Virus record (IMG/VR): IMGVR_UViG_3300044697_000029
Coordinates: 1 to 64,000 of that record
Origin: a virus
Strand: one strand, 5' to 3'
Length of the DNA: 64,000 bases
The translations under genes and the position numbers were made by a program. The notes beneath the pieces are model-generated. The model was not told the origin of the DNA and ran no database searches. It was given only the letters and a program-made list of their open reading frames with translations. Shown here piece by piece: positions 6,941 to 51,631 of the stretch (the stretch's first letter is position 1; the number at the start of each line of letters is the position of its first letter).

Positions 6941-7325
6941 CGGGGTTCTCCGGCATGGACGGCAGCGGTGTCCAGTGCGTGTGATAACCGGGCCAGCCGC
7001 CTACATATCCGCGGCAGACAACGCGGGTTTCCGGCGCATCGCGTGTCCAGACTTCGACGGTATGACCCACCGAAAGCGGCGAGCCTATCCACGGGGCCTC
7101 CTCAATCGGAAAGCGCCACCACAGGACATCGCCGACTTCTTCCGTCCAGTCGCTCAACGGACGCGGCTTGCCGGCCTCGGCCTCCGCAGCCGCCAGCGCG
7201 GCGCGCATCATGTGCTGAAACTGCCCAGGAGCCGGGCCGTTAGAAAAAGAGAATCCTTGCGGCATTGCCTGCAAGAACGTCTCGCACGCCGCTTCCACGA
7301 CGCGATCGGGGATTTCAACGGGCAT
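6930..7325 (-). CDS. Phage hypothetical protein (DVLWWRFPIEEAPWIGSP...THWTPLP)
   Basis: GGAG RBS; THWxPLP C-terminus common in phage accessory genes. Confidence 0.7.
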   Translation of the reverse strand: MPVEIPDRVVEAACETFLQAMPQGFSFSNGPAPGQFQHMMRAALAAAEAEAGKPRPLSDWTEEVGDVLWWRFPIEEAPWIGSPLSVGHTVEVWTRDAPETRVVCRGYVGGWPGYHTHWTPLPSMPENPDAP

Positions 7326-7833
7326 TGCGCTTCTCCTTGTGTGTCGCCTGCAACCGCGCCCGCGCCTCAGTAAGCTCGCGCTGCAACAGGTCGATCGTCG
7401 CGGCCTGGCGGGTGCGGGTGGCTTCGGATGCGGCGTAGGCGTCGAGGAGGGTTAGGATGGTCTGGGGATCGCAGGCGGCAATGAAAGCGCCATTATCCTT
7501 CATCTGCTGCCGTGTGTTGGCGGCGACACCCGGGGCTCCCAGCCACGATATGTTACCGCATTGAGCGATTGCGTTTTCGTCCTTTGTCTCGACCCACACG
7601 TCTGGGCAACTCCACGGCCCAGGCGTCGCCCTCTCCGCGAGCGCCCGCAGCGCATCGAGGTCAGTAGTAAGGCCCGGCGCAGATTCGTGGTCAGACATCG
7701 GCACCGCTCCTTTTTCTTTGGCTTCTGCCGCCATCAGCGCGTCCTTCTCGTCCTGGCCGAGCGCGGACCATTGGTTGAACTGATCGGCTCCGGCGTTCCA
7801 GCGCGCGACTACCGCAGATTCGTGGTCAGACAT
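7315..7833 (-). CDS. Ead/Ea22-like protein with duplicated N-terminus
   Basis: LRALAERATPGPW...NGAFIAACDPQTILTLL. Confidence 0.75.
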   Translation of the reverse strand: MSDHESAVVARWNAGADQFNQWSALGQDEKDALMAAEAKEKGAVPMSDHESAPGLTTDLDALRALAERATPGPWSCPDVWVETKDENAIAQCGNISWLGAPGVAANTRQQMKDNGAFIAACDPQTILTLLDAYAASEATRTRQAATIDLLQRELTEARARLQATHKEKRNAR

Positions 7834-7838
7834 CGGCA
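7678..7838. repeat. 26-bp direct repeat (7678-7703, 7813-7838) encoding PMSDHESA
   Basis: cgcagattcgtggtcagacatcggca occurs twice. Confidence 0.9.
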
Positions 7839-8056
7839 GCCTCCATGAATGCCGCTTCGACCGCCAGGAAGACGGCGGTTTCACGGACGGTAAGGTTGCC
7901 GATCGCCACGCCGCTGCGGTCGTTCGTTGCGACGCGGAACTCCTTCATGGCGCAGTATGTGGCACTAAGCACTGCGTCCAACAGCCGCTCATCCCTCGCT
8001 TTGTCCCGCTGTGCGAGGTGCGACAGGCAGTCCGGGAGGGGGTTGCGCTCAGCCAT
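7826..8056 (-). CDS. Hypothetical protein
   Basis: Overlaps neighbours in the operon. Confidence 0.5.
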   Translation of the reverse strand: MAERNPLPDCLSHLAQRDKARDERLLDAVLSATYCAMKEFRVATNDRSGVAIGNLTVRETAVFLAVEAAFMEAADV

Positions 8057-8423
8057 TGGAAGCCGGCGGGAACATCTCTGCCATCAGTCGCAGGATGGCG
8101 TCGGCGGCAAGATGCGGCGGTCGGTGCCAAGCGACACTAATTCCGCGCCGTAACTCCCACCAAGCGTCGTCGGCGGCGCGCGTCGCATCGCGTTCCGCAC
8201 GCTGGTGTTGCCAGTCCTCCTCTGACCGGTACATCGCGCCGTAGAAGCCTTCAACATGCATGGTCTTGATATTGAATCGCACTGGCCGAAGCCAACACGA
8301 GTGCGGGAAGAACTCTGCCCACTTGCGCCCGACCTTTTTGATCTCGATCTCGGTCGGCGCCCACTCATCCAGACCGCGGCAGCACCACAGAAGCTTGTCG
8401 CCGGGCTTGATGGTCTGGGGCAT
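8049..8423 (-). CDS. Hypothetical protein (IKKVGRKW beta-barrel-like)
   Basis: TGATG coupling to the upstream gene; AAGGA RBS. Confidence 0.6.
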   Translation of the reverse strand: MPQTIKPGDKLLWCCRGLDEWAPTEIEIKKVGRKWAEFFPHSCWLRPVRFNIKTMHVEGFYGAMYRSEEDWQHQRAERDATRAADDAWWELRRGISVAWHRPPHLAADAILRLMAEMFPPASNG

Positions 8424-8722
8424 CAGGAGCGTTCCTTTACTTCCGACAGCAGCGCTCGGCCGGCCTCGGTGGTGCGCCATCCGGCATGCGGCATGTTAGA
8501 CACAAGCCCGCGCTTCCTCAGCGACCCACAAACACTGGCCCCAACCGCTTGATTTCCGCCGCAGGCGACGCCACGCTCGAAACACCGCATCGAACACGCG
8601 ACCACTGTCCCCTCGTTGCGCTGCTGTGCATACCAGGGGTCCGGCAGAATGAGATGACGATGCGGCCCGATCGACGCTCGGGCCTCGGCACCGCACGCAT
8701 CGCAGATTGCTATGAGGCTCAT
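8423..8722 (-). CDS. Hypothetical protein with CxxC motifs
   Basis: GAGGAGG RBS; CDAC and CSMRC. Confidence 0.6.
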   Translation of the reverse strand: MSLIAICDACGAEARASIGPHRHLILPDPWYAQQRNEGTVVACSMRCFERGVACGGNQAVGASVCGSLRKRGLVSNMPHAGWRTTEAGRALLSEVKERS

Positions 8723-32394: not shown

Positions 32395-32973
32395 GTGATG
32401 GAACAGGCAGGCGGCGCCGTGTTTATGGTCCTGGTGATCGTATTCGTGGTCTGGTTTTATGGTCCTTGGCAATCGCTGTGCGTTGATTGGGGTCGCGAAC
32501 GCATGTTCGAGGCTCGTAATGCCATCTTTGATATGGCTGCGGACGGTCGCCTTAGTTTTGGTTCGCCAGAGTACCGCGAAATCCGACGAAAGATCGAAAG
32601 CAGCATCGCATTTGCCCACCGTATCTCGTGGCCATCGTTAGTGCTTCTGTATCTCGGCGTTCGTAGGTTTGAGATCAAGAAGCCACGCTCTATAGTTGAT
32701 CTCCTGGCAGCGATTCCTGATGACGGAGTTCGCCGAGAGGTGCAGCAGCACACTGATGCAGTCACCTGGACGATCGTGCGCATGATCGTATTCCGGTCCA
32801 CGATATTCCTCGCAATTTATATGATGACGTGGGTGCTTTGGAAGTGTGGTGCGCCGGTCTATTGGTGGTGCAAGGGGCGCGCACAGGAGATAGCTGAGGC
32901 AATCCAGGACGATGCACTGGCAGTGGATGACGGCGCCGCCGTCCTACGAAGGCGTTATCATCTGTCGGTCTAG
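32395..32973 (+). CDS. IS passenger, membrane protein
   Basis: AGGAG RBS; about three TM segments. Confidence 0.7.
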   Translation: MMEQAGGAVFMVLVIVFVVWFYGPWQSLCVDWGRERMFEARNAIFDMAADGRLSFGSPEYREIRRKIESSIAFAHRISWPSLVLLYLGVRRFEIKKPRSIVDLLAAIPDDGVRREVQQHTDAVTWTIVRMIVFRSTIFLAIYMMTWVLWKCGAPVYWWCKGRAQEIAEAIQDDALAVDDGAAVLRRRYHLSV

Positions 32974-33953
32974 CCGCACTGCGCCCGCTGCCAGTACCCG
33001 CACCAGTCCACCGAGGTAGGCGCCCGCATGGCCAGCCCGGACACGGCGATGACCTGGTGCCCGTTGTCCACCCGCCGATGATCCTCGCGCCAAGCCGACT
33101 CCTGCGCATACCGAACCAAGTAGGGGCCGGCGACGTGGTGATGATGGCCGATTTCGCCCCGGCGCGTGCGGGAGAAGAAGGACTCTGCGCCGTTGGTGTA
33201 CACGCCGGCGCCCGTGCTGTACAACTGCTCATGGTTGATCCGGTGCACGTCGTAGCGGGCGTGTAGATCGTTCCATGACCCGGCTTCGTCGGCCATCAGC
33301 CGGGTGCCCTTGGCGACGCTGCGGCTGATCCAGCCCAGCGCAGCCGACTCGGACTTGAACACGGCCGGCAGCGTGGAACCGCCGCGCTCGCGGACCACCA
33401 CAACCACCTTGCGCTTGCCGTTCTGGTTCTTGCCGAGCCGGCGGTCCCGGCGGTTCTCCTTGTGGTTCGCTGGCTTGATGTAGCCGCCGAAGTACGCGCC
33501 GTCAGTCTCGACCGTCTCGCCCTCGCCCCCCAGCTTCATCCCCTTCAACTCGGACGCCATCGCCTCGCGGATTTTGTGCGCCAGAACGAAGCTGGTCATG
33601 TAGGCCACGCCGAGATCGCGGGACAGCGCCAGTGCGGACTTGCCCTTGACCTCGTTGATGAAGATGGCGATCGCCGCGAGGTAGGCGCGCAGCGGCAGCT
33701 TGTGGAACGCGAACAACGTGCCGGACGTGATGGAGAAATCCTTGCGGCACGCCTTGCATCGCCACCGGGCCGAAGCGCCCTTGCGGCAGTCATAGATGGT
33801 CTCGCAGCCGCAGTGCGGGCAGACCGGCTTTCCCTTCGTGGCAGCCCAGCGAACCGACATGAAGGCCGACTCGGCTTCCTCATCCGTCATCCGCATGACA
33901 GCCGCCAGAGAAAGGGTCTTGGCGCGGGAGGAAAGGAGGAAGTGCTGGGGCAT
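32970..33953 (-). CDS. IS1595-family (ISXO2-like) DDE transposase
   Basis: Zn ribbon CPHC/CKAC, VETDGAYFGG, LMADE, TNGAESFFS. Confidence 0.95.
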   Translation of the reverse strand: MPQHFLLSSRAKTLSLAAVMRMTDEEAESAFMSVRWAATKGKPVCPHCGCETIYDCRKGASARWRCKACRKDFSITSGTLFAFHKLPLRAYLAAIAIFINEVKGKSALALSRDLGVAYMTSFVLAHKIREAMASELKGMKLGGEGETVETDGAYFGGYIKPANHKENRRDRRLGKNQNGKRKVVVVVRERGGSTLPAVFKSESAALGWISRSVAKGTRLMADEAGSWNDLHARYDVHRINHEQLYSTGAGVYTNGAESFFSRTRRGEIGHHHHVAGPYLVRYAQESAWREDHRRVDNGHQVIAVSGLAMRAPTSVDWCGYWQRAQCG

Positions 33954-34063
33954 TGGGATCGTATCCGCTTTGAACAAAGCGAATATGATCTGATCCGAGC
34001 GACTTGTCAATCAGAAAAGATCGTATATGATCGGTTCCAGTCGATTTTGCTCGGGAGAAAGCG

Positions 34064-41013: not shown

Positions 41014-41451
41014 ATGGCGCGCAACCGCACGACATTTCCACCCGGCAAAGGAACAGGATGGGGCGGTCCGGCCAGAGGGCCGGGCGCCGGTCCAAAGTTC
41101 GAGAAGTTCATGGAAGGCAACCAGACCGAGCATCCCGCGGGCGACGATTATCGCGAGCGTCGGCAGAAACGCCGCGAGTTGCGCGCCGCTGGCGCCGAAA
41201 GGCTTCAGCAGTTGAAGGACCATCTAGCCGATCTAGCCCTCAATGCCGAGCATGAAGCCACGCAGGTTAGCGCGACCGTCGCGTGGCTAAATCGGGAAGA
41301 GGGGATGCCGGCACAGACGAACAAGAATCTGAATGTCGATGTCATCAGCGGTCTCCCGCTCGACCAACAGCGAGCTATTGCGGCGGCTCTCGACGCTCTC
41401 CCCGACGACGCGGGCGACGATGCGGGAGGCGCTGCGCCGCAGCATCACTGA
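41014..41451 (+). CDS. Putative terminase small subunit
   Basis: Position; FPPG/FMEGNQ N-terminus; WLNREEGMPAQ. Confidence 0.6.
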   Translation: MARNRTTFPPGKGTGWGGPARGPGAGPKFEKFMEGNQTEHPAGDDYRERRQKRRELRAAGAERLQQLKDHLADLALNAEHEATQVSATVAWLNREEGMPAQTNKNLNVDVISGLPLDQQRAIAAALDALPDDAGDDAGGAAPQHH

Positions 41452-42139
41452 GGCCGAGCGCGGCCGGTTCATCGACACACTCTATCCCCACACGGGGCCT
41501 CTACGCCGCGAACTCTACATCAAGCACCTGGAGTTCTGGCGCGCGGGCGCGGTGCATGACGAACGGGCGTTCGTTGCAGGGAATCGGACCGGTAAGACCA
41601 CGTGCGTATCATACGAGGATGTACTGCACCTGACCGGTGATTATCCGGAGTGGTGGGAAGGCAGGCGCTTCGATCGCCCGATCACATGCTGGGCCTGCGG
41701 CACAGATGCCAAGGCAGTGCGCGAAAAGCTGCAGCCTGCATTGATTGGGCCGGCCGAAGCGCGAGGGACTGGGATCATCCCCCGCGACCGGCTTCTGCGG
41801 ACCTTCGCACGAAGCGGCACGGCGGACGCAATCGACTTTGCACTCGTTCGCAACCAGTTCGGCGGATTGTCGCGCCTGGTGTTCAAGGCATACGAACAAG
41901 GGCGTGAATCGTTCCAGGCCGCCGAGGTCGATGTCGTCCACCTGGACGAAGAGCCGCCGATGGCGATCTACACCGAGGCGCTGACCCGCACGCTCTCGAC
42001 GGTGCCCGGGCGGCGTAACGGTATTCTGGTCTTCAGTTTCACGCCACTCCAAGGACTGAGCGACGTGGTTCTGCAGTTCCTGCCTGGCGGTGCATACCCC
42101 GCAACGGAAGAGGTCCGCAAACAGGCGTGGGGATGGTAA
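41333..42139 (+). CDS. Terminase large subunit, ATPase half
   Basis: AGNRTGKT, VHLDEEPP, SFTPLQG. Confidence 0.9.
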   Translation: MSMSSAVSRSTNSELLRRLSTLSPTTRATMREALRRSITEAERGRFIDTLYPHTGPLRRELYIKHLEFWRAGAVHDERAFVAGNRTGKTTCVSYEDVLHLTGDYPEWWEGRRFDRPITCWACGTDAKAVREKLQPALIGPAEARGTGIIPRDRLLRTFARSGTADAIDFALVRNQFGGLSRLVFKAYEQGRESFQAAEVDVVHLDEEPPMAIYTEALTRTLSTVPGRRNGILVFSFTPLQGLSDVVLQFLPGGAYPATEEVRKQAWGW

Positions 42140-42521
42140 ATGCGGGTTGTTCTACCCTAGGTAGGTGCGGTATATCTCCCCGATGTGCCCCACCCAGCCT
42201 TCTGCCGTAGAACGGCTAGCCAAGCGAATAAGAGAGAGTGTGCGCGCCGATATAGCAGCCGCGCTTCTGCCTAATGTTCCGTCTGCCTCGGACGGAGAGC
42301 ATTTCCGTCCCATGCAATTTGATCCAATGAGTCAATCGCGGCCCGCATTGCAGCCGCCGCAAAAAGATCAAGGAGAACCGTCGTCAAAGCGCCATTCCGG
42401 TGCGCGAACTTAATTGCTAGGTACTCGACGGTCCCCGTCTGCCCCACGCAGGGGAGCGCCTTGAGGCTCAACGCCACATCGCCACGAGCGTACGCGCTGC
42501 GCGCTTCTTGTTCGGTAAACG

Positions 42522-42644
42522 AAGGTTCGTGCCATCCTCTGTCGCCGCTGCAACACAGTTTTAGGGCAGGTCAGCGACTCAAAAGAACTGCTTCACGCAA
42601 TGGCTGACTACCTCGCGGGAGGTGGAACATCACGAGATACGTAG
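42522..42644 (+). pseudogene. C-terminal remnant of an endonuclease VII-type HNH nuclease
   Basis: KVRAILCRRCNTVLGQVSDSKELLHAMADYL; in-frame TAA at 42516. Confidence 0.7.
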
Positions 42645-43390
42645 TACAAGCCGGATGGGCCGACTCACCGCACCTTTCGCCAGACGCCACGGAGGAGCTT
42701 GCGCGCTCGTATCCACCGAATGAACGGGACGCCCGCATGCGCGGCATCCCTTCGCTCGGGGCGGGCGCGATTTACCCCGTGCCGGAAAGCGAAGTCGTCG
42801 TGCAGCCGTTCAAAGTGCCGCACTATTGGCCTATCTGCTACGCCCTGGATGTCGGCTGGAACCGCACTGCTGCGCTATGGGCCGCTCACGACACAGAGAC
42901 CGACACAGCCTATCTCGTGAGCGAGCACTATCGAGCGCACGCCGAGCCGCCGATCCACGCTGAGGCGATCAAGGCGCGTGGCGCGTGGATACCTGGAGTA
43001 ATCGACCCAGCGGCGCGCGGACGCAGCCAGAAGGACGGCGCCGCCCTGATGACGACCTATCAGGAGCTTGGGCTAAGGCTAACCGCCGCGAACAATGCCG
43101 TCGAAGCGGGCATTTACGAGGTGTGGACGCGGTTTTCAACGGGACGCCTGAAGGTCTTCGCGACGCTGCAGAACTTCCTCGCGGAGTATCGTATCTACAG
43201 GCGCGATGAAAAAGGCCACATCGTGAAGGACAGCGACCACCTCATGGACGATTGTCGCTACATCTGCATGAGCGGCCTTGATATCGCGGCATTCCGACCG
43301 CCAGAACTGGTGCGCGGTCTGGTCGGGAAGCCGAAACAGGAATGGTCCCCCCGCGCCGCACTCGATTCCGATGGATACGGATTGCGATGA
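42629..43390 (+). CDS. Terminase large subunit, nuclease half (likely ATC start)
   Basis: ITRYVVQAGWADSPHL...RMRGIPSLGAGAIYP, ALDVGW, DHLMDDCRY; GGAGGT 5 nt before ATC. Confidence 0.85.
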   Translation: MTRYVVQAGWADSPHLSPDATEELARSYPPNERDARMRGIPSLGAGAIYPVPESEVVVQPFKVPHYWPICYALDVGWNRTAALWAAHDTETDTAYLVSEHYRAHAEPPIHAEAIKARGAWIPGVIDPAARGRSQKDGAALMTTYQELGLRLTAANNAVEAGIYEVWTRFSTGRLKVFATLQNFLAEYRIYRRDEKGHIVKDSDHLMDDCRYICMSGLDIAAFRPPELVRGLVGKPKQEWSPRAALDSDGYGLR

Positions 43391-43603: not shown

Positions 43604-43780
43604 GTGACCGAATCCGTCTGTCTTTTCGACTCCCTTCGCGACCTGTTTCATGCGGTGCAGTACGAGCGGTGGTTGGGTCGGGTGTACGGAAAGATCGAGG
43701 AGCATGAGATGACCGTGAAGGCCATGCTGACGGCCTACGCGATCGACCGCGGTCTATCATGGCGCCCGACGAATGCCTGA
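43604..43780 (+). CDS. Hypothetical protein
   Basis: Fills the gap before the portal. Confidence 0.45.
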   Translation: MTESVCLFDSLRDLFHAVQYERWLGRVYGKIEEHEMTVKAMLTAYAIDRGLSWRPTNA

Positions 43781-45614
43781 ATCTGCTGCCCAACGCCGCT
43801 ACGCCCGCGGCAACGGTCTCGATCCGGCACAACCGTTCTATTTCCAGTCATCCCCAACGATGCTGGGGATGCAGCCGGCAAACGACAGCGCGCCGGCGCC
43901 CGTTGCTCCGTCGTGGCTGGGTTGGCCCGACCTCTACCGCCATCTGGAAGCGCGGCTCGCGGCCGAAAAGACGTGGCGGCTGTCATGGTGGCGGCTGTGG
44001 GGAGATATCGCCCGGTTCGAGCTTCCGAGGCGGTACCACGCGTTTTTGACGGAGAACGACTACAACAGGGGCACGCGCCGCGACGGTGCCATCCTCGACA
44101 ACACCGCGACGCAGGATGGTGAGACCTGTGCCGGCGGCATCATGACGGTCTGCACGGACCCCGATCGGGAGTGGATCAAGCTGGGCGCGCCGGCCGGCGT
44201 CGAGGTCGATCGCGACGGGCAGATGTTCTTCGATGACCTGACCGAACGGCTCCGCTTCGTGCAGGATGAGACCAACTTTTACGAGAGCCTGAACCAGTTC
44301 TATGAGGACCTGACGTTCTTCGGAACCGGCGTGGCGATCGACTATGACGATGCCGACAACATCTTCGTCTGCCGGAATCCGTGTGCCGGCGAGTTCTGCC
44401 TCGCGAGCGGTGCCGGCAACGAGGACCAGTCGCTTTTCGTCGAGGAACGCCGGACGGTTGCGCAGATCGTTGAGATGTTCGGGCTGGACAACTGCCCGCT
44501 CGATATTCGCCAGCAGTTCGTCCAGAAAGGTGGCGCGCTGGAACAGGAGCGCATCGTCGGACATGCCATCGAGCCGAATTTCGCGCTGTCGGACGGTAAC
44601 GGTGGGTCCGTTGGCAGGTTGCCGGGCCATTTCACGTGGCGCGAGGTGTACTGGATCGTCGGCAAATCCGACACCGCGCCGCTGAGCATCGCGGGCTTTC
44701 AGGAGAAGCCCTTTGCTGCCTCGCAGTGGCATCGTGTGTCCAACGACCCCTACGGCCACGGGCCGGGATCGACGGTGCTTGGCGACACGATCGAACTGCA
44801 AATCCTCACGGCGCGGCAGGCCGAACTGGTGGAGAAGATCGGTCGGCCCCCGATGACGGCGCCGGTCTCGCTCAAGAACGAACCGCACTCGATCAAGCCC
44901 GACCAGATCACGTATTACGATGCGACCACTTCCGCGCCGCAGTTCAAGCCGATATTCGAGGTCGATGCGCGCGCCTTGGTTGGCATCAACGCCTCGATCG
45001 CCGCCGTGCAGGAGCGCATCCATCGCGGCATGCACGCCGACCTGTTTCGGATGATCCAGGAACTGTCACAACGCCCAGGCCAGAAGACGGCAACCGAGAT
45101 CGACGCGCTTCGGGAAGAACGTCTGATGCAACTCGGGCCGGTGATCGGCCGCGTCTATCGCTACGGCATCCGCCCACGGATCAACCGGCAACTGGCCATC
45201 TTGCGGCGCCGCGGGCTGTGGCCGAAGATTCCGCAATCGATGCGCCGGCTGCCGTTGCAGATCGAGTTCATCTCGATGCTGACCCTGGCGCAGCGGGCCG
45301 GGGCGGTCGGCTCGATCGAACGGACGTTTGCCTTCGCCCAATCGCTGGCGCCCGATCCGCGGTTCGCTGAGAGCGGCGACGTGCTGGATGCCGACGAAGC
45401 CGTGCGAGAAGCGGCATCCTTGCGCGGCGCACCGTCCCGGATTATCAGGGCGGCGGCGGACGTGCGGAGGATCAGGGCGGCACGCCAGCAGGCCGTGTCG
45501 GCGCAGCAGCAGGCACAGACCGCGCAAGCAGCCGTGGCGGGAGCGCAGCAGTTGTCGCAGACCAGTCTCAATCCGGGGAACGCCCTGGGGGCCATGTTGC
45601 AGGGGGCACGGTGA
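43773..45614 (+). CDS. Portal protein (head-tail connector)
   Basis: 613 aa; TNFY..L...Y.DL..FGTG, YGHGPG, TATEI...EE.L.QLGPV, IEFISML. Confidence 0.93.
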   Translation: MPESAAQRRYARGNGLDPAQPFYFQSSPTMLGMQPANDSAPAPVAPSWLGWPDLYRHLEARLAAEKTWRLSWWRLWGDIARFELPRRYHAFLTENDYNRGTRRDGAILDNTATQDGETCAGGIMTVCTDPDREWIKLGAPAGVEVDRDGQMFFDDLTERLRFVQDETNFYESLNQFYEDLTFFGTGVAIDYDDADNIFVCRNPCAGEFCLASGAGNEDQSLFVEERRTVAQIVEMFGLDNCPLDIRQQFVQKGGALEQERIVGHAIEPNFALSDGNGGSVGRLPGHFTWREVYWIVGKSDTAPLSIAGFQEKPFAASQWHRVSNDPYGHGPGSTVLGDTIELQILTARQAELVEKIGRPPMTAPVSLKNEPHSIKPDQITYYDATTSAPQFKPIFEVDARALVGINASIAAVQERIHRGMHADLFRMIQELSQRPGQKTATEIDALREERLMQLGPVIGRVYRYGIRPRINRQLAILRRRGLWPKIPQSMRRLPLQIEFISMLTLAQRAGAVGSIERTFAFAQSLAPDPRFAESGDVLDADEAVREAASLRGAPSRIIRAAADVRRIRAARQQAVSAQQQAQTAQAAVAGAQQLSQTSLNPGNALGAMLQGAR

Positions 45615-45859
45615 TCAAATCCTATCCCGCCCATCCCCAGGTTCTGCAACGCGACGCCGGGTCTGAGGCGATGCTGATGTGGCCCAGGAACGCCGAGATT
45701 GATCTCGCGCACGTGACGGGCGCCTATCCGGTGCCATACGTGCCGCCGATGGTTGATCCGGTGTCTAACGTGGTCGCGGTGCAGCATGGCGGCCAGACGA
45801 CGGTGATCCACGCCGATTTCGACCAGTTCCAGCGGGATTGGGAGGCAAGCCGGCGATGA
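45611..45859 (+). CDS. Hypothetical protein
   Basis: GTGA and ATGA coupling. Confidence 0.55.
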   Translation: MIKSYPAHPQVLQRDAGSEAMLMWPRNAEIDLAHVTGAYPVPYVPPMVDPVSNVVAVQHGGQTTVIHADFDQFQRDWEASRR

Positions 45860-46716
45860 GCCGCGAAAGCAAACAGGACGATCCGTGGGAGCGCCGTGCA
45901 CTCTACGGGTGCGCCGCCGCTCTTGGTGGCAACGTGCCGCAAGCAATCCGGGATTTCGCAGGCCATCTTGACCAGGCCGCTGATGTGTTGGCCGATGCGC
46001 CCTGGATTGAGGGCAATGCTATGAGCGGCCACATCTTCGAACGATATGGGGGAGGCGGCGCCCGCAGTAGGCTCGGGGTGGGAAGGAGGCTCGCGCTCTC
46101 CGAAATACCGGAATGGATCGTTCGCATGAGCGATGACGCTGCGCAATGCAGGATGGCCGAGCTCGGGGCCGACCATGAAGCTCTGGGGCAAACTGTTGCC
46201 ACGGACATTTTCTATGGTAGCCCGCAGGCGGACCCATGCAGTTGCATCGGGCTATCGGCCTTTTGCGAGTCACCCCAAGGAAACGTGGTTGACGGCGGTG
46301 GTGACGGCGGCTCGTCGATCTGGCTGCTCTCATGGCACCAGGAGGAACTTTATATCGCCTATCCAAAAGGCAGTATGGCTGGCCTCATGCGCCACGATCT
46401 CGGTCTTCAAGTGGGAGAGCGGGATGCAACGGGCGCCCGAGAGGTTGTTTACACAGAAGCGTCGGAAGTTTCGTTGGCGATAATTCCTCAGAGGGCACAA
46501 AGCGTAGTGCGTATCGCAAACCTAGCTGGTGTCGTGGGAGCGCGGCTGGATCAGTTGATGAGAGCGGCTCTGGGCATGCTCGGCGATACAAAAGGAAGGC
46601 CGACATTTTACATGAACCGCACGGTAGCGGCGGCCCGTGGCAGTACAGAGCCGCTGGATGACTATCCGGTGCGTATCGCCGACGAACTGCGTTTTGATGA
46701 GGCGAGGGTTGCCTGA
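45856..46716 (+). CDS. Major-capsid-protein paralog 1 (internally deleted)
   Basis: Colinear with 49903-50958: PWIEGN..GH, QTVA..IFYG, SSIWL, YPKGS.AGL, VVRIANL, FYMNRT, DEARV. Confidence 0.85.
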   Translation: MSRESKQDDPWERRALYGCAAALGGNVPQAIRDFAGHLDQAADVLADAPWIEGNAMSGHIFERYGGGGARSRLGVGRRLALSEIPEWIVRMSDDAAQCRMAELGADHEALGQTVATDIFYGSPQADPCSCIGLSAFCESPQGNVVDGGGDGGSSIWLLSWHQEELYIAYPKGSMAGLMRHDLGLQVGERDATGAREVVYTEASEVSLAIIPQRAQSVVRIANLAGVVGARLDQLMRAALGMLGDTKGRPTFYMNRTVAAARGSTEPLDDYPVRIADELRFDEARVA

Positions 46717-47147
46717 TGTCTCGCGAAACCGAGTTCCTCACGCGCCACAAGGAAGACCTGACGCAAGCCGCCGAGATGTGCCGCACACTTCAGCGCCAGG
46801 CCGTCGAGGTCTCGCCGCGGCATCGCACCTACCTGCGGCTTCTGCAGACCTGCAAGCGGCTGGAAGGCACCTGCCGTCAGATGGCACATGAGCGCGGCGA
46901 CGACTTCACGTGGTTGCAGCTTGGGCACCACTATCACGCGGTATCGCGGAAGGTGACGGCGCTGCGGCACGAGGGGAAATGGCTGCTGTTCGGGAAGTTG
47001 GCTGAGGTATTCGAGGCTGGGATGCCGCAGGTCGGGCGGCTGGCCACGACTGCGACGGGGCTGACCAGCATGAGCACTTCGCCGCTGCTGATCCTGCCGC
47101 CCTACCTGCGTGGCGGCAAAATGGATGGACGGATTATCGTGCCATGA
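46716..47147 (+). CDS. Hypothetical helical protein between the capsid paralogs
   Basis: TGATG and ATGA coupling. Confidence 0.7.
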   Translation: MSRETEFLTRHKEDLTQAAEMCRTLQRQAVEVSPRHRTYLRLLQTCKRLEGTCRQMAHERGDDFTWLQLGHHYHAVSRKVTALRHEGKWLLFGKLAEVFEAGMPQVGRLATTATGLTSMSTSPLLILPPYLRGGKMDGRIIVP

Positions 47148-47833
47148 CCGCACGATGGCTGAGTGACCCGGGTCGGCCCACTGAACTGGCGTGGTTCTTT
47201 GACGCGCCGTGGGAAGCGGCCAACCAGCGGCGCTGGCACAAGTACAATGTCCTTGCCACATCGTCGCCTATACGGATGATGTCAGGTGTGCTTGCGCTCA
47301 GCGCACCAGCAAAAGACGTGCTGCGGCAGGTAATCTACGGCAACCCCGTCGCTCAGAGCGTCGCGGGTCAGCCGCTGACCGAGATGATGGGCCTCGCGCC
47401 TATGTTTGCTAGCCGCGATCCGGGCGACGCCGCCAATGCGGTGAATGTCCTGGATGCTGGTGGCACGAGCAACCTATGTTCCGCGTGGTTGATCGGGTGG
47501 GGACCGCGCACGGTATTCATGGTCTCGCCAGATGGGGATCCACCTTCCCTCGAAGGCGAATGCGGCATTGCGGTTGCGGACTGGCGCTATGTGGTGCGAA
47601 TCGCGAACATCGACGCTGTTTCGCCGAACTTCAATGCGCTGGCAATGATGGCGATGGCGAGTATCCGTCTGCCGCGCCTGACCTGCGATGAGAACCTGCG
47701 GCCAATGTTCTATGTCACAAAGGACGTGGAAAATCGGCTGAAGGACGATGTGTCGAAGCACGTTGAGCGGTTCAGTGGCGTCCCTATCCGTGTGATTGAT
47801 GAACTGCGGAGCGACGAGGCGCGCATCGCTTGA
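47144..47833 (+). CDS. Major-capsid-protein paralog 2 (more extensively deleted)
   Basis: IYGN, AANAVNVLDAGG, SAWLIGWGPR, DWRYVVRIANID, RLP, FSGVPIR..DE. Confidence 0.85.
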   Translation: MTARWLSDPGRPTELAWFFDAPWEAANQRRWHKYNVLATSSPIRMMSGVLALSAPAKDVLRQVIYGNPVAQSVAGQPLTEMMGLAPMFASRDPGDAANAVNVLDAGGTSNLCSAWLIGWGPRTVFMVSPDGDPPSLEGECGIAVADWRYVVRIANIDAVSPNFNALAMMAMASIRLPRLTCDENLRPMFYVTKDVENRLKDDVSKHVERFSGVPIRVIDELRSDEARIA

Positions 47834-48189
47834 GTGACTATCCCTACGCCTCCCGCGTCGCGGCTGCTGATGCCGCTATCGAAGACGTCCTCGATCCAGG
47901 TGCGGCTGCCGCTCGCGAGGAACAGAACCGCGAACACGAACGCGCCAGACAGCAACGCCGAGCGTTCCTGATGCAGACCATGCAGCATCCCGAAGGCCGG
48001 AAGTGGCTCAAGGAGATGCTGGACCGGTTCCACACGTTCGAGGCCCGCATGGCATCGGTGAACGGCATGGCGCCCGATCCGATGGGCACAATGCTTCTGG
48101 CCGGCGAGCAACGCTGCGGCTGGTGGATTTGGGAGCAGTTGGACGACGCCGATCCAGTCGTGGCTTCGAGACTGCGGAGGAATGCGTGA
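47830..48189 (+). CDS. Bbp19-like head protein
   Basis: MQHPEGRKWLKEML...AGEQRCG; position between portal and scaffold. Confidence 0.75.
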   Translation: MSDYPYASRVAAADAAIEDVLDPGAAAAREEQNREHERARQQRRAFLMQTMQHPEGRKWLKEMLDRFHTFEARMASVNGMAPDPMGTMLLAGEQRCGWWIWEQLDDADPVVASRLRRNA

Positions 48190-48625
48190 GAACGATCATC
48201 AAGGTGGACGAAGGCTGCCTCAACGGGCTGCTGACGACGCGGTTCATCGTGTTGGATCACGACTGCTGGTCGTTCGGCGAGCGTGTCAGTCAGGTCGATG
48301 CGGCGCTCGCCTCCATTCGGGACAGCGAAGACGCGGAGTGCCTGCGGGTGTTCGGCCAGGAGTTCTGCCCTGCTGTCGTGCCAGATGAATGTGAGACTCT
48401 GGTCGCGGCGAAGATCAGATAGGGCGCGCGGTCCCCGGCAACTCCATCGTAGGGAACGGCACTCCGGCTGGAGTGCAGAAATACCATCCTGCCGCTTCAA
48501 CCGAGTAGCGGAACGCCGCATCCTCGGATTCCCGTTCGCGCCGATCCGCTTCGACCATCGCTTGACCGGTGTAGGTGCGCTCGCTCATGATTTGCTCTCC
48601 CTGCGGCACTAGGGAAGTTCAAGCG

Positions 48626-49036
48626 TCATGCCACGCTCCGCGTTTGACGCGATGCGGGTCGGTAGGTCGTCATCTGTAACCGGCGTCGCTCATGATCGCC
48701 CCCTTCCCTCAGCGGCAACGCGGACCGTTCAGCGGGCGCTACGCCATCCATGATGTTGCGCGGCAGCACAGTCCGCACCGACACGACCGCTCCGTTGCTG
48801 TTTCGGTCGTCTAACGAGATGTGCGGTGCGTAAACCGCCAGCGGGGCGGTCTGACGTTCTGTCGCGACTGCGTTCCGCGGCACGAATTGCATCTCATGGA
48901 ATGCCCCATCGTCACCACGCTCGAAGACGCCTTCGCTTGTGGCGACGAACAGCCGGTCCTTGAACACGACCATTGAGATGATCGGCACTTTGCTCGTCGC
49001 GACCAGTTCCATGTTGCGGGGCGGCTCTGCGTCCAT
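48626..49036 (-). CDS. Hypothetical protein on the opposite strand (moron-like)
   Basis: IISMVVFKDRLFVATSEGVF beta-blade-like segment; AAGGTG RBS. Confidence 0.5.
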   Translation of the reverse strand: MDAEPPRNMELVATSKVPIISMVVFKDRLFVATSEGVFERGDDGAFHEMQFVPRNAVATERQTAPLAVYAPHISLDDRNSNGAVVSVRTVLPRNIMDGVAPAERSALPLREGGDHERRRLQMTTYRPASRQTRSVA

Positions 49037-49055
49037 GTCCACACCTTGAGGTTTC

Positions 49056-49886
49056 ATGTCCGACAGTTCTACCGCAGCAGAAACGCCCGCGCCAGCGTCG
49101 GAACCGGCTCCCGCAGCCGCTGCACCGGCGCCCGAGCCTGTCGCTGCGCCGGCCACCGAGGTAACGCCCGCAGCCACCCCAGAGCCGGTCGCCGAACCGG
49201 CAGCCCCATCCCCCGAGCCGGAGCCGGCCGCAGCCGCAGGAGAGCCTGCGCCCGCCACGGTCCAGGATCCGGCCGCAGCCGAACTGGAGAAGGCGCCGGA
49301 GGCTGCCGAACCGGTCGCAGAGCCGCCGAAGCCGGAACCGCCGACCTACACCGATTTCAAGTTCCCGGACGGTGTGAAGGTCGCCCCCGAAGCTATGACC
49401 GCCGCAACCAAGGTGTTCGGCGAGTTCGGCCTAACCCAGGAGCAGGCGCAAAGGCTGATCGACATTCATGCCGAACAGCAGCAAGCGGCGGTTAAGCAGT
49501 TCACCACTGCGGCCACGGACTACTGGAACGCCGAGTCCAGGAAATGGGTTGCCGAGGTCGAGAAGACATTCGGCAACCAGCTCAACACCAACATAGAGCG
49601 TGCCCGCGCGGTTTGGTCCGACGTGCTGCCCAAGCAAGCCGATCGTGACCGTCTGTTCGGCGCGCTGAACGACACCAAGATCGGCGACCACCCCATGCTG
49701 GCCCGCGCGCTGGCGGAGGTCGGCCGCCGCTTCGAGCAAATCTACCAGTTGACCGGAACCAATAGCTGGGATGCCGCGATGAGACGGCTGCGTGAACCGG
49801 CCGCGCCGCCACCTGCCCAACCTGCCCGTGCGCCTGGTGCCGCCGGGCGACCTGCCGACCGCCGTTACAGCGGCACCCGAGCATAG
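49056..49886 (+). CDS. Capsid scaffolding protein
   Basis: Pro/Ala/Glu N-terminus, YTDFKFPDG, GLTQEQAQRL, IGDHP; directly before the capsid gene. Confidence 0.85.
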   Translation: MSDSSTAAETPAPASEPAPAAAAPAPEPVAAPATEVTPAATPEPVAEPAAPSPEPEPAAAAGEPAPATVQDPAAAELEKAPEAAEPVAEPPKPEPPTYTDFKFPDGVKVAPEAMTAATKVFGEFGLTQEQAQRLIDIHAEQQQAAVKQFTTAATDYWNAESRKWVAEVEKTFGNQLNTNIERARAVWSDVLPKQADRDRLFGALNDTKIGDHPMLARALAEVGRRFEQIYQLTGTNSWDAAMRRLREPAAPPPAQPARAPGAAGRPADRRYSGTRA

Positions 49887-49902
49887 AGAAGGAGCTTGAA
49901 CG

Positions 49903-50958
49903 ATGGCCACCGGCCAATACCTGACGCTTGTCGATCTCGCGCGGCGCACCGACCCTGACGGTGAGGCGGCGGACATTGCCGAACTGCTTTCCCAGGCCAA
50001 CGAGATTTACGATGATCTCGTCTGGAAAGAAGGCAACACCAACACCGGGCACGTCTATACGATGCGGACCTCCATCCCGAAGGGCTGGTGGCGCTTCATC
50101 GGCCAGGGTGTGCCGGGCAGCAAGTCCACCACGGCGCAGGGTCGCACCAACTGCGGCGACCTGGAAATGAACTCGACCATTGATCTCAAGCTGGTCGAAA
50201 TGGCGCCGGATCAAAACCAGTTCCGCTACGATGAAGACAACGCCATCCTGGAAGGCGCCAGCCAGACTGTGGCTGGCCAGTTCTTCTATGGTAACGGCCA
50301 GACCAACCCAGCATCGTTCACCGGCCTCTCGAACTACTACAACACGCTGGAAACCTCGACGGCCGCGAACGCAGTCAACGTGTTCGACGGCGGCGGACGG
50401 TCCACTAACAATTCGTCGATCTGGCTGATTGGTTGGTCGCCGCGCTCGATCTATGGCGTCTTCCCGCGCGGCATGAAAGCCGGCGTTGAGCTGCAGCCGC
50501 TCGATGAAGTTGTGCTGGCCTACGACAGCCTGGGCAATCCGTACCGCGCCAAGATCACATGGTTCCGGCAGATGGCTGGGCTGTGCGTCGAAGACTGGCG
50601 CTGGGGCGTCCGCATCGCCAACCTGGACGTGACCAACGCAGCGGCTGGCGGTCTGGCTGGCCCGAATGCGTATGACATCTTCGTCGGGCTGTCCAAGGCG
50701 GTGAAGCGCTTGCCGAAGATGGCGCGCGGGCAAAGCGGCATCACCGAGACCGACGCTCGCAATGAGCGCGGGATGACGGTACGGCCGGCCATCTACTTCA
50801 ACCGCACTGTCGGCGGCTTTGCTGATGTGCAAGCGATACGTGACCGCAACGTGTTGCTCGGCCCGAGGGACTACGCTGGCGAGCCGGTCACGTCGTTCCG
50901 CGGCATTCCGATGCGCACGCAAGACCAGATTCTGTCCACCGAAACGCAGGTCACCTGA
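49903..50958 (+). CDS. Major capsid protein (BPP-1-like HK97 fold)
   Basis: AAGGAG RBS; TL.DLA...IAELLSQ.NEI..D...EGN..TGH, DWRW.VRIANLD, FRGIP; strong codon bias. Confidence 0.95.
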   Translation: MATGQYLTLVDLARRTDPDGEAADIAELLSQANEIYDDLVWKEGNTNTGHVYTMRTSIPKGWWRFIGQGVPGSKSTTAQGRTNCGDLEMNSTIDLKLVEMAPDQNQFRYDEDNAILEGASQTVAGQFFYGNGQTNPASFTGLSNYYNTLETSTAANAVNVFDGGGRSTNNSSIWLIGWSPRSIYGVFPRGMKAGVELQPLDEVVLAYDSLGNPYRAKITWFRQMAGLCVEDWRWGVRIANLDVTNAAAGGLAGPNAYDIFVGLSKAVKRLPKMARGQSGITETDARNERGMTVRPAIYFNRTVGGFADVQAIRDRNVLLGPRDYAGEPVTSFRGIPMRTQDQILSTETQVT

Positions 50959-51097
50959 TTCCGACAACGACTGCTCGGCTCATCCCGTCCACGAAAAGAA
51001 GGTGTGGCCGAAGTCCCGTTGGATCGAGCCCCTAACCCCTGCGCCCATAACAACCGGGTGCATATCGCTTTTCTTCCCGACCTGAAAGGGTAATGCC

Positions 51098-51631
51098 GTG
51101 GCGATCAATGACGCACAGCTCATCTTTGACAGCAACGTCTCCCTCGCCATCGCGGCGCCGGGGCAGCCGTCCTCGGAGACCATCGACCTGATGGGAGTCG
51201 GGGTCGGGCAGGCGCCCCCGAACTACTTTGGCGTGCAGGATGCGGTGTTCGGGGAAGACCCCGGCATCGGCGACGGGGCAAGCCCGCCGGTTCTGCAAGT
51301 CATCGTCGGCACGGCGTTCGTTGCCGTGGCAGGCGCCACGCTCCGGGTGCAGTTCCAGGAATCGGTGGACAGCGGCGCCCCTGGGTACACGCCTGCCGCC
51401 TGGAAGACCGTGCTGCAGACCGATGATCTGCCGGCGTCGGTTCTGACGGCGGGCGCCAAGATCGCCGAGATGGCCATCCCGCCGCGGTATCCCGGCGCTG
51501 CGTTCCCCCGCTATCTGCGGCTGAACTACCTTTTGAATGTCGGTGGTTCGAGCTTCAGCGCGGGCACGATCGCGATCGCGAACATCGTCACGGGCCGCGA
51601 CGACACCCCTGCGTATCCCGCCGGTTACTGA
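51098..51631 (+). CDS. Bbp16-like capsid cement protein
   Basis: DAQLIF, SETIDL, RYLRLNY, GTI; follows the capsid gene. Confidence 0.85.
   Translation: MAINDAQLIFDSNVSLAIAAPGQPSSETIDLMGVGVGQAPPNYFGVQDAVFGEDPGIGDGASPPVLQVIVGTAFVAVAGATLRVQFQESVDSGAPGYTPAAWKTVLQTDDLPASVLTAGAKIAEMAIPPRYPGAAFPRYLRLNYLLNVGGSSFSAGTIAIANIVTGRDDTPAYPAGY

Follow-up and report, generated by a model that had tools for sequence, protein, structure and literature searches.

Two cut-down capsid paralogs in the head operon of an uncultured phage: candidate accessory modifiers of head assembly

Why should a phage that has an ordinary capsid gene carry two further, trimmed ones? The question is raised by the virus record IMGVR_UViG_3300044697_000029 (84,249 bp, without end repeats, 100% complete by CheckV), whose first 64,000 nucleotides form the window analysed here. 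Two open reading frames (ORFs), par1 and par2, lie in its late operon upstream of the gene for the major capsid protein (MCP). An original prediction, made from the letters alone, took them for trimmed MCP paralogs that might serve as decoys for capsid-sensing immunity, as poisons of competing phages, or as vertex or minor capsid subunits. We confirm that both are true, intact homologs of the BPP-1/epsilon15-type capsid proteins. Their role is less certain; the likeliest, which we put forward tentatively, is that of accessory modifiers of head assembly or geometry, comparable to T4 gp24 or SaPIbov5 Ccm.

Three genes of the record encode proteins of Pfam family PF20911 (GP7): par1, par2 and the resident MCP gene. 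Judged by its sequence, the full-length resident gene obviously encodes the shell protein; its product is homologous to the solved capsid proteins of BPP-1 (3j4u, phmmer E-value 8.8e-53), Carin1 (8cjz) and epsilon15 (3j40). par1 and par2 match PF20911 with 112.3 and 92.3 bits, both above the curated cut-off of 27 bits. As had been claimed, they are colinear with the 351-residue MCP: BLASTP gave E-values of 2e-22 for par1 (29% identity) and 2e-20 for par2 (26%), and 6e-10 between the two paralogs, values that exclude chance homology. Motifs shared with the GP7 family include SIWLxxW, RIAN and FYxN. By simple arithmetic, a 286-codon open frame, the length of par1, has a probability of about 2.5e-4 at the local base composition.

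Both frames are free of stop codons and sit in a coupled chain, in which each junction from the portal gene to orf119 overlaps by 1 or 4 nucleotides. The portal gene and orf82 overlap at GTGA. par1 starts at the ATG at 45856, in an ATGA overlap with the stop codon of orf82 and with GGGAGG 10 nucleotides upstream. The junctions that follow are TGATG at 46714-46718, ATGA at 47144-47147 and TTGA at 47830-47833, and the ribosome-binding site of par2 is weak. The par1 N-terminus, ERRALYGCAAALGG, looks faintly like a twin-arginine (Tat) signal; this N-terminus aligns with the MCP's own ARR segment and is itself predicted to be helical, and a signal peptide was rejected. Checking par2 revealed no signal peptide.

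To locate what the paralogs have lost, we mapped the deletions by HMMER alignments to BPP-1, using published domain boundaries (PMC3863775). par1 lacks MCP residues ~54-76, the internal deletion described before, which corresponds to BPP-1 residues 57-79 and thus to the tip of the E-loop. par2 lacks residues ~1-18, the N-terminal arm that binds the cement protein in BPP-1 (PMC3863775); residues ~60-106, comprising the E-loop and adjoining P-domain strands; and residues ~195-221 (BPP-1 194-217), a beta-element hairpin in whose place stands SPDGDPPSLEG. The proposal that the segment missing from both is the E-loop therefore stands. For par2, the predicted losses of the N-arm and of the segment replaced by SPDGDPPSLEG also stand, while the supposed loss of much of the following helix region seems not to: most of the spine helix is apparently kept, and it is the E-loop and P-domain strands that are gone. 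A further change had been missed. The C-terminal proximal (axial) loop, BPP-1 residues 293-309, is lost in par1 and shortened in par2. The N-terminus of par1 is altered relative to the canonical capsid protein. E-loops are named as the most variable part of these proteins, and the BPP-1 backbone comparison omits residues 61-80 (PMC3863775).

Structure prediction yielded a BPP-1-type HK97-like fold for both proteins. The AF2 model of par1, from a 91-row alignment, has a pLDDT of 93.7 and a pTM of 0.90, and superimposes on BPP-1 3j4u_A with a Z-score of 23.2 and a root mean square deviation (rmsd) of 3.3 over 245 residues; par1 is thus confidently modelled as an HK97-like fold, complete save for the clipped E-loop, the missing axial loop and the altered N-terminus. 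The model of par2, for which only nine relatives could be aligned, is of moderate quality (pLDDT 67.7, pTM 0.73). Its best matches are the BPP-1, Carin1 and epsilon15 capsids (Foldseek E-value 1.6e-10), with a Z-score of 15.5 and an rmsd of 4.3 over 203 residues against 3j4u_G. par1 and par2 thus share family and fold with these three capsid proteins. They differ from them in several parts: par1 has a clipped E-loop and par2 none, the axial loop is lost or shortened, and the N-arm is altered or lost; par2 in addition has no P-domain sheet, and both are extra to a normal capsid gene and belong to a separate clade. Neither model shows the full GP7 architecture of N-arm, extended E-loop, P-domain sheet, A-domain and C-terminal proximal loop. 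The models suggest that both proteins could still pack around the capsomer axis and would be unable to lace capsomers together, and that par2 would be unable to tile a shell.

A maximum-likelihood tree of 49 proteins, obtained by a quick search and with long paralog branches, unites the par1 and par2 families in one clade (SH-aLRT 100) outside all canonical MCPs, with the resident MCP deep among the latter. The shared deletions support this grouping independently. Because they fall in a separate clade, par1 and par2 are not recent copies of the resident MCP, in agreement with the original prediction. The clade takes in about 14 rare metagenomic clusters, and par1 and par2 appear to be members of an old, rare lineage of cut-down BPP-1/epsilon15-type capsid proteins. 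The par2 family (P0006-P0013 and par2 itself) consists of proteins of 213-242 residues with 38-61% identity. Relatives of par1 are scarcer: an exhaustive HMMER search returned only the distant, short proteins P0125 and P0127 (284 residues each), P0148 (236) and P0268 (226), to which a profile search added P0283 (233), and all five have E-loop and axial-loop deletions like those of par1. The C-terminal motif DELRxDEARV, noted earlier as shared by the two paralogs and foreign to the resident MCP, is found in 8 of the 9 par2-family rows as well as in par1 and P0125; the other members of the par1 family have degenerate versions of this tail.

Could the two genes simply be relics without function, left by an old duplication or recombination and merely still open? 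Several features would fit. The G+C content at third codon positions (GC3) is 0.62 in par1, close to the overall G+C, and 0.70 in par2, compared with 0.73-0.84 in neighbouring genes; the par1 branch is very long (1.86); the family is very rare; DWR, near-universal in the motif DWRYVVRIAN, is missing from par1; and the Arg-rich C-terminus of P0013, one of the nine proteins of the par2 family, cannot be aligned and looks frameshifted. Against this stand two frames of 286 and 229 codons that are open and precisely coupled to their neighbours. Of 41 positions conserved to 80% or more among 78 canonical MCPs, par1, besides having a well-scored model, keeps 32, where individual canonical proteins keep 29-41, and its variants in other assemblies show single substitutions only, with no frame breaks. 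par2 keeps 26 of the 41, and seven more fall within its deletions. Frameshifted homologs would have spoken for decay: P0013 looks like one, while the other par2 relatives have open frames and remain conserved at identities as low as 38%. Within the par2 family, pairwise identity averages 0.64-0.72 in the A-domain strands and the C-terminus and 0.19-0.30 in linkers. It reaches 0.56 in SPDGxPPSxxGECC, the loop standing in for the hairpin, and 0.49 in a new N-terminal motif. That such family-specific novelties are conserved points to a new function rather than decay. Taken together, these comparisons favour maintenance, as had been proposed, and make the leftover explanation the least probable of those considered here.

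Contigs from four sequencing runs are essentially identical across par1 and par2, so that the population is nearly clonal and offers no usable variants. Positions 45600-51000 recur essentially unchanged in 20 runs from 13 studies (2017-2025) of freshwater, lake, peat and marine samples. Uncultured phages are not usually so clonal and so widespread; the explanation could lie in a shared host strain or in a source of contamination. Identical fragments in a peat metatranscriptome cover par1, the junctions of par2 and the genes for the capsid and cement proteins, and also an apparently non-coding stretch. DNA carry-over is possible, and we do not count these fragments as evidence of expression.

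Comparison with relatives revealed how the paralogs came to lie where they do. With the resident MCP as query, IMG/VR yielded 26 loci whose MCPs are 48-91% identical to it. Fifteen of these span the interval from portal gene to MCP gene (capsid identity 49-91%) and have the order portal, small ORF, orf143, orf119, scaffold, MCP, cement protein and orf323. No par1- or par2-like gene was found in any of the 26 loci by tblastn and three profile hidden Markov models; the nearest relative, L165, whose MCP and portal protein are 91% and 79% identical, has neither. Since the relatives keep this order without both paralogs, par1 (perhaps with orf82) and par2 are insertions flanking orf143, and, on this gene-order evidence, lineage-specific ones in a variable accessory slot. 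Their absence from relatives with up to 91% identical capsid proteins indicates that they are not core parts of the virion.

The interval from portal gene to MCP gene varies from 1.8 to 6.8 kb among the relatives and is a hot spot for cargo. At the exact par2 junction, between orf143 and orf119, L173 has a translationally coupled gene for a 297-residue DHH phosphoesterase (7632-8525, plus strand; phrog_4771, E-value 5e-102). L183 carries an HNH or EndoVII-like endonuclease, and L181 a TROVE-like fragment and an 851-residue protein of unknown kind. Between the portal gene and orf143 of a 64.6-kb relative, L190, lies an ORF of about 96 codons (7058-7348, minus strand) that begins with a Tat-like leader, SRRGFITGLISLVAAPAIVRAG, and continues as a copy of a C-terminal MCP segment, 43% identical over 46 residues to the relative's own capsid protein. 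The axial loop, absent from par1 and short in par2, is part of the copied segment. By its sequence, this ORF represents another type of accessory gene, also capsid-derived, in the portal-scaffold slot.

Wider searches showed how rare the arrangement is. At 160 more distant GP7-type loci tblastn found no extra paralog; the sole apparent exception, a second capsid-like gene at L122, proved to be a rearranged capsid gene. Each of 99 matching cultured-phage records has one capsid place and no extra paralog. The full par2 alignment matched only ordinary capsid genes in IMG/VR and GTDB genomes, the 160 loci among them, and an alignment of the C-terminal motif had no match in IMG/VR or in JGI metagenome contigs. 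Likewise, par1 had no match in JGI metagenome contigs, nor had P0283 and the par1-family profile in IMG/VR.

An anti-defence gene might be expected to lie as an accessory gene in a variable slot, and par1 and par2 do so. CapRel and Lit are capsid-triggered defence systems. Capsid proteins are known to trigger others as well, for example Avs7 and Dsr1 (bioRxiv 10.64898/2026.01.04.697583). The paralogs might thus be counter-defence decoys, which would mimic unassembled capsid protein and bind host sensors (of CapRel, Lit, Avs7 or Dsr1 type) yet leave them inactive, so blunting the response; unable to polymerise for want of the lattice-forming parts, they would stay out of the phage's own shell. 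Their presence here and absence from all 26 related loci, the non-structural cargo of the slot in relatives, the trimming of polymerisation parts from a retained core fold, and their long branches and atypical codon use all agree with this. A decoy would, however, have to outcompete a very abundant capsid protein, and the weak ribosome-binding site of par2 and the coupling of both genes to a low-copy portal gene are poorly suited to that. Our literature search found no published capsid-like decoy, PADLOC gave no match (a result that is not informative for anti-defence genes), and the 84-kb genome would be left unexplained. We consider decoys unlikely, albeit the foremost alternative to a role in head assembly. 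If they were decoys, they would be the first structural-protein decoy in phage counter-defence and a new class of countermeasure against capsid-sensing immunity.

The size of the genome bears more directly on a role in head assembly. Complete relatives with terminal repeats measure 63.1, 63.9 and 64.8 kb, with a single capsid gene anywhere in each genome. The present record measures 84.2 kb, and the identical par1 protein occurs on an 86.2-kb contig. BPP-1 has T=7 and 42,493 bp; scaling from it by T^1.5 puts T=9, by simple arithmetic, at about 62 kb and T=12 at about 95 kb. On this scaling the relatives fit T=9, and the 84-kb phage should need a larger or elongated head. Phage GP4 (T=9) was left out of the comparison, because membership of its capsid protein in the GP7 family is not established. 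par1 and par2 are the only obvious additions to its head module, and the unusually large genome of their carrier favours a role in assembly or geometry.

There are precedents for such a role. T4 gp24 is a vertex protein, a paralog of gp23 encoded in the head gene cluster, which is specialised for pentons and can be dispensed with through bypass mutations. To our knowledge, every capsid paralog described so far works in assembly, T4 gp24 at vertices and Ccm in pentons. Ccm of SaPIbov5 is a satellite capsid homolog, 24% identical to its capsid protein, that fills pentons and changes capsid shape (PMC8569155). par1 and par2, too, are diverged capsid paralogs (26-29% identity) found in addition to the MCP gene: like gp24 they are phage-encoded and lie in the head gene cluster, and like Ccm they are accessory proteins beside a normal capsid protein. 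The likeness is incomplete. gp24 is full-length and conserved throughout T4-like phages; the two proteins studied here have lost segments, are rare and are missing from close relatives. Ccm, which has its N-arm, E-loop and P-domain, is borne by a satellite and makes capsids smaller; par1 and par2, in contrast, are shortened, are encoded in the head operon of the phage itself and come with a larger genome. Extra capsid paralogs are already known as a vertex protein and as a size-redirecting factor of a satellite, but our literature search found no lattice-stripped capsid clade carried as optional cargo in a phage's own head operon.

The position in the head operon, the loss of the axial loop, the 84-kb genome and these precedents make an accessory role in head geometry our first choice. 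Translated in the coupled chain behind the portal gene, the two proteins would probably be made in low amounts. Both keep the A-domain, which packs subunits around the capsomer axis, and both have shed parts that tie the lattice together: neither has an intact E-loop, and par2 has lost the P-domain sheet and the cement-binding N-arm as well. The loop that crowds the capsomer axis is missing from par1 and short in par2. par1 could be a minor subunit of the vertex or penton type, held in place by E-loops from the adjoining hexamers, and par2 a partner with the A-domain alone, capping capsomers or biasing them. The pair might help to build a head for 84 kb, compared with the 63-65 kb of paralog-free relatives. 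If so, a podophage lineage would have raised its packaged DNA from about 63 to about 84 kb by acquiring accessory genes, with no remodelling of its capsid protein.

Several observations weigh against such geometry modifiers. The paralogs do not retain all the lattice elements (E-loop and P-domain) that gp24 and Ccm retain, and par2 could not tile a shell; relatives with 87-91% identical capsid proteins and a scaffold of the same length do without paralogs; the DHH phosphoesterase, HNH endonuclease and TROVE-like protein found in the slot elsewhere are not structural; the low GC3 of the paralogs relative to flanking genes and the length of the par1 branch would also fit arms-race or foreign genes; and the link to genome size comes from one genome, whose record has no terminal repeats.

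A retained A-domain combined with lost lattice contacts would also suit a dominant-negative poison. By means of the A-domain, such a protein would insert itself into capsomers of a GP7-type phage infecting the same cell and halt the growth of the lattice, the resident capsid protein being too diverged to be hit. The identity of only 26-29% to the resident protein agrees with this, and Ccm sets the precedent that capsid homologs can interfere with assembly (PMC8569155). Yet the genes belong to the phage's own late operon and have no separate promoter, so that a poison would be useful only when both phages infect the cell at once. Nothing points to lysogeny: no integrase was seen among the scanned ORFs, and no tRNA was found. 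A risk to the phage's own capsids would remain. We regard this explanation as very improbable.

The features of the head region are collected in Table 1.

Table 1. Features from the portal gene to the cement protein gene (positions in the window).
Feature	Position	Strand	Remarks
Portal gene	43773..45614	+	PF12236 E-value 6.6e-87, phrog_332; head of the coupled chain; GTGA overlap with orf82
orf82, small ORF, may belong to the first insertion	45611..45859	+	at the place of unrelated 69-80-residue ORFs of relatives
par1, trimmed capsid paralog, 286 residues	45856..46716	+	PF20911, 112 bits
orf143, basic helical protein, between the two insertions	46716..47147	+	31-67% identical homologs between portal gene and orf119 in relatives
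par2, paralog of 229 residues, A-domain and spine helix	47144..47833	+	PF20911, 92 bits
orf119, last gene of the coupled chain	47830..48189	+	31-66% identical homologs in relatives; weak phrog_528 match
Stretch of 867 nucleotides without recognisable gene, orf119 to scaffold gene	48190..49055	.	ORFs without PHROG family; orf119 and scaffold gene abut in L167
Scaffold-like protein	49056..49886	+	phrog_458 E-value 1.2e-22; kept just upstream of the capsid gene in relatives
Resident MCP, 351 residues	49903..50958	+	PF20911, 317.5 bits
Bbp16-type cement protein	51098..51631	+	PF21190, 28.2 bits (cut-off 27.1)

The late operon, on the plus strand, begins with a NusG-like gene, a small ORF at the position of the small terminase and a split large terminase, and continues from the portal gene through orf82, par1, orf143, par2 and orf119 and, after the 867-nucleotide stretch, through the scaffold-like gene to the MCP and cement protein genes. 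Among the small ORFs, orf82 has no Pfam, PHROG or PADLOC match and is 16-19% identical to its positional counterparts in L165 and L167. orf143 has no Pfam or PHROG family, and its Atlas model matches generic helical-bundle look-alikes only. In the 867-nucleotide stretch, promoter- and terminator-like sites are no commoner than in shuffled sequences.

The early 40 kb carries phage replication genes (a primase-helicase, a PDDEXK nuclease and methylases, along with DUF5131) and an IS1595-family transposase (DDE_Tnp_IS1595, E-value 2.7e-36, with a zinc ribbon; 32970-34010, minus strand). At its ends, the record carries orphan genes and a tail fibre that bears an S74 chaperone domain; no obvious host genes lie there. 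The large terminase is split into ORFs at 41333-42139 and 42737-43390, about 600 nucleotides apart; tblastx against G001, a 63-kb relative with an 87% identical capsid protein, leaves 42144-42611 unmatched. Only the late structural module, about 41.5-78 kb, is common to the record and G001. Positions 1-41482, the whole early region, are unrelated, and the genome is therefore strongly mosaic.

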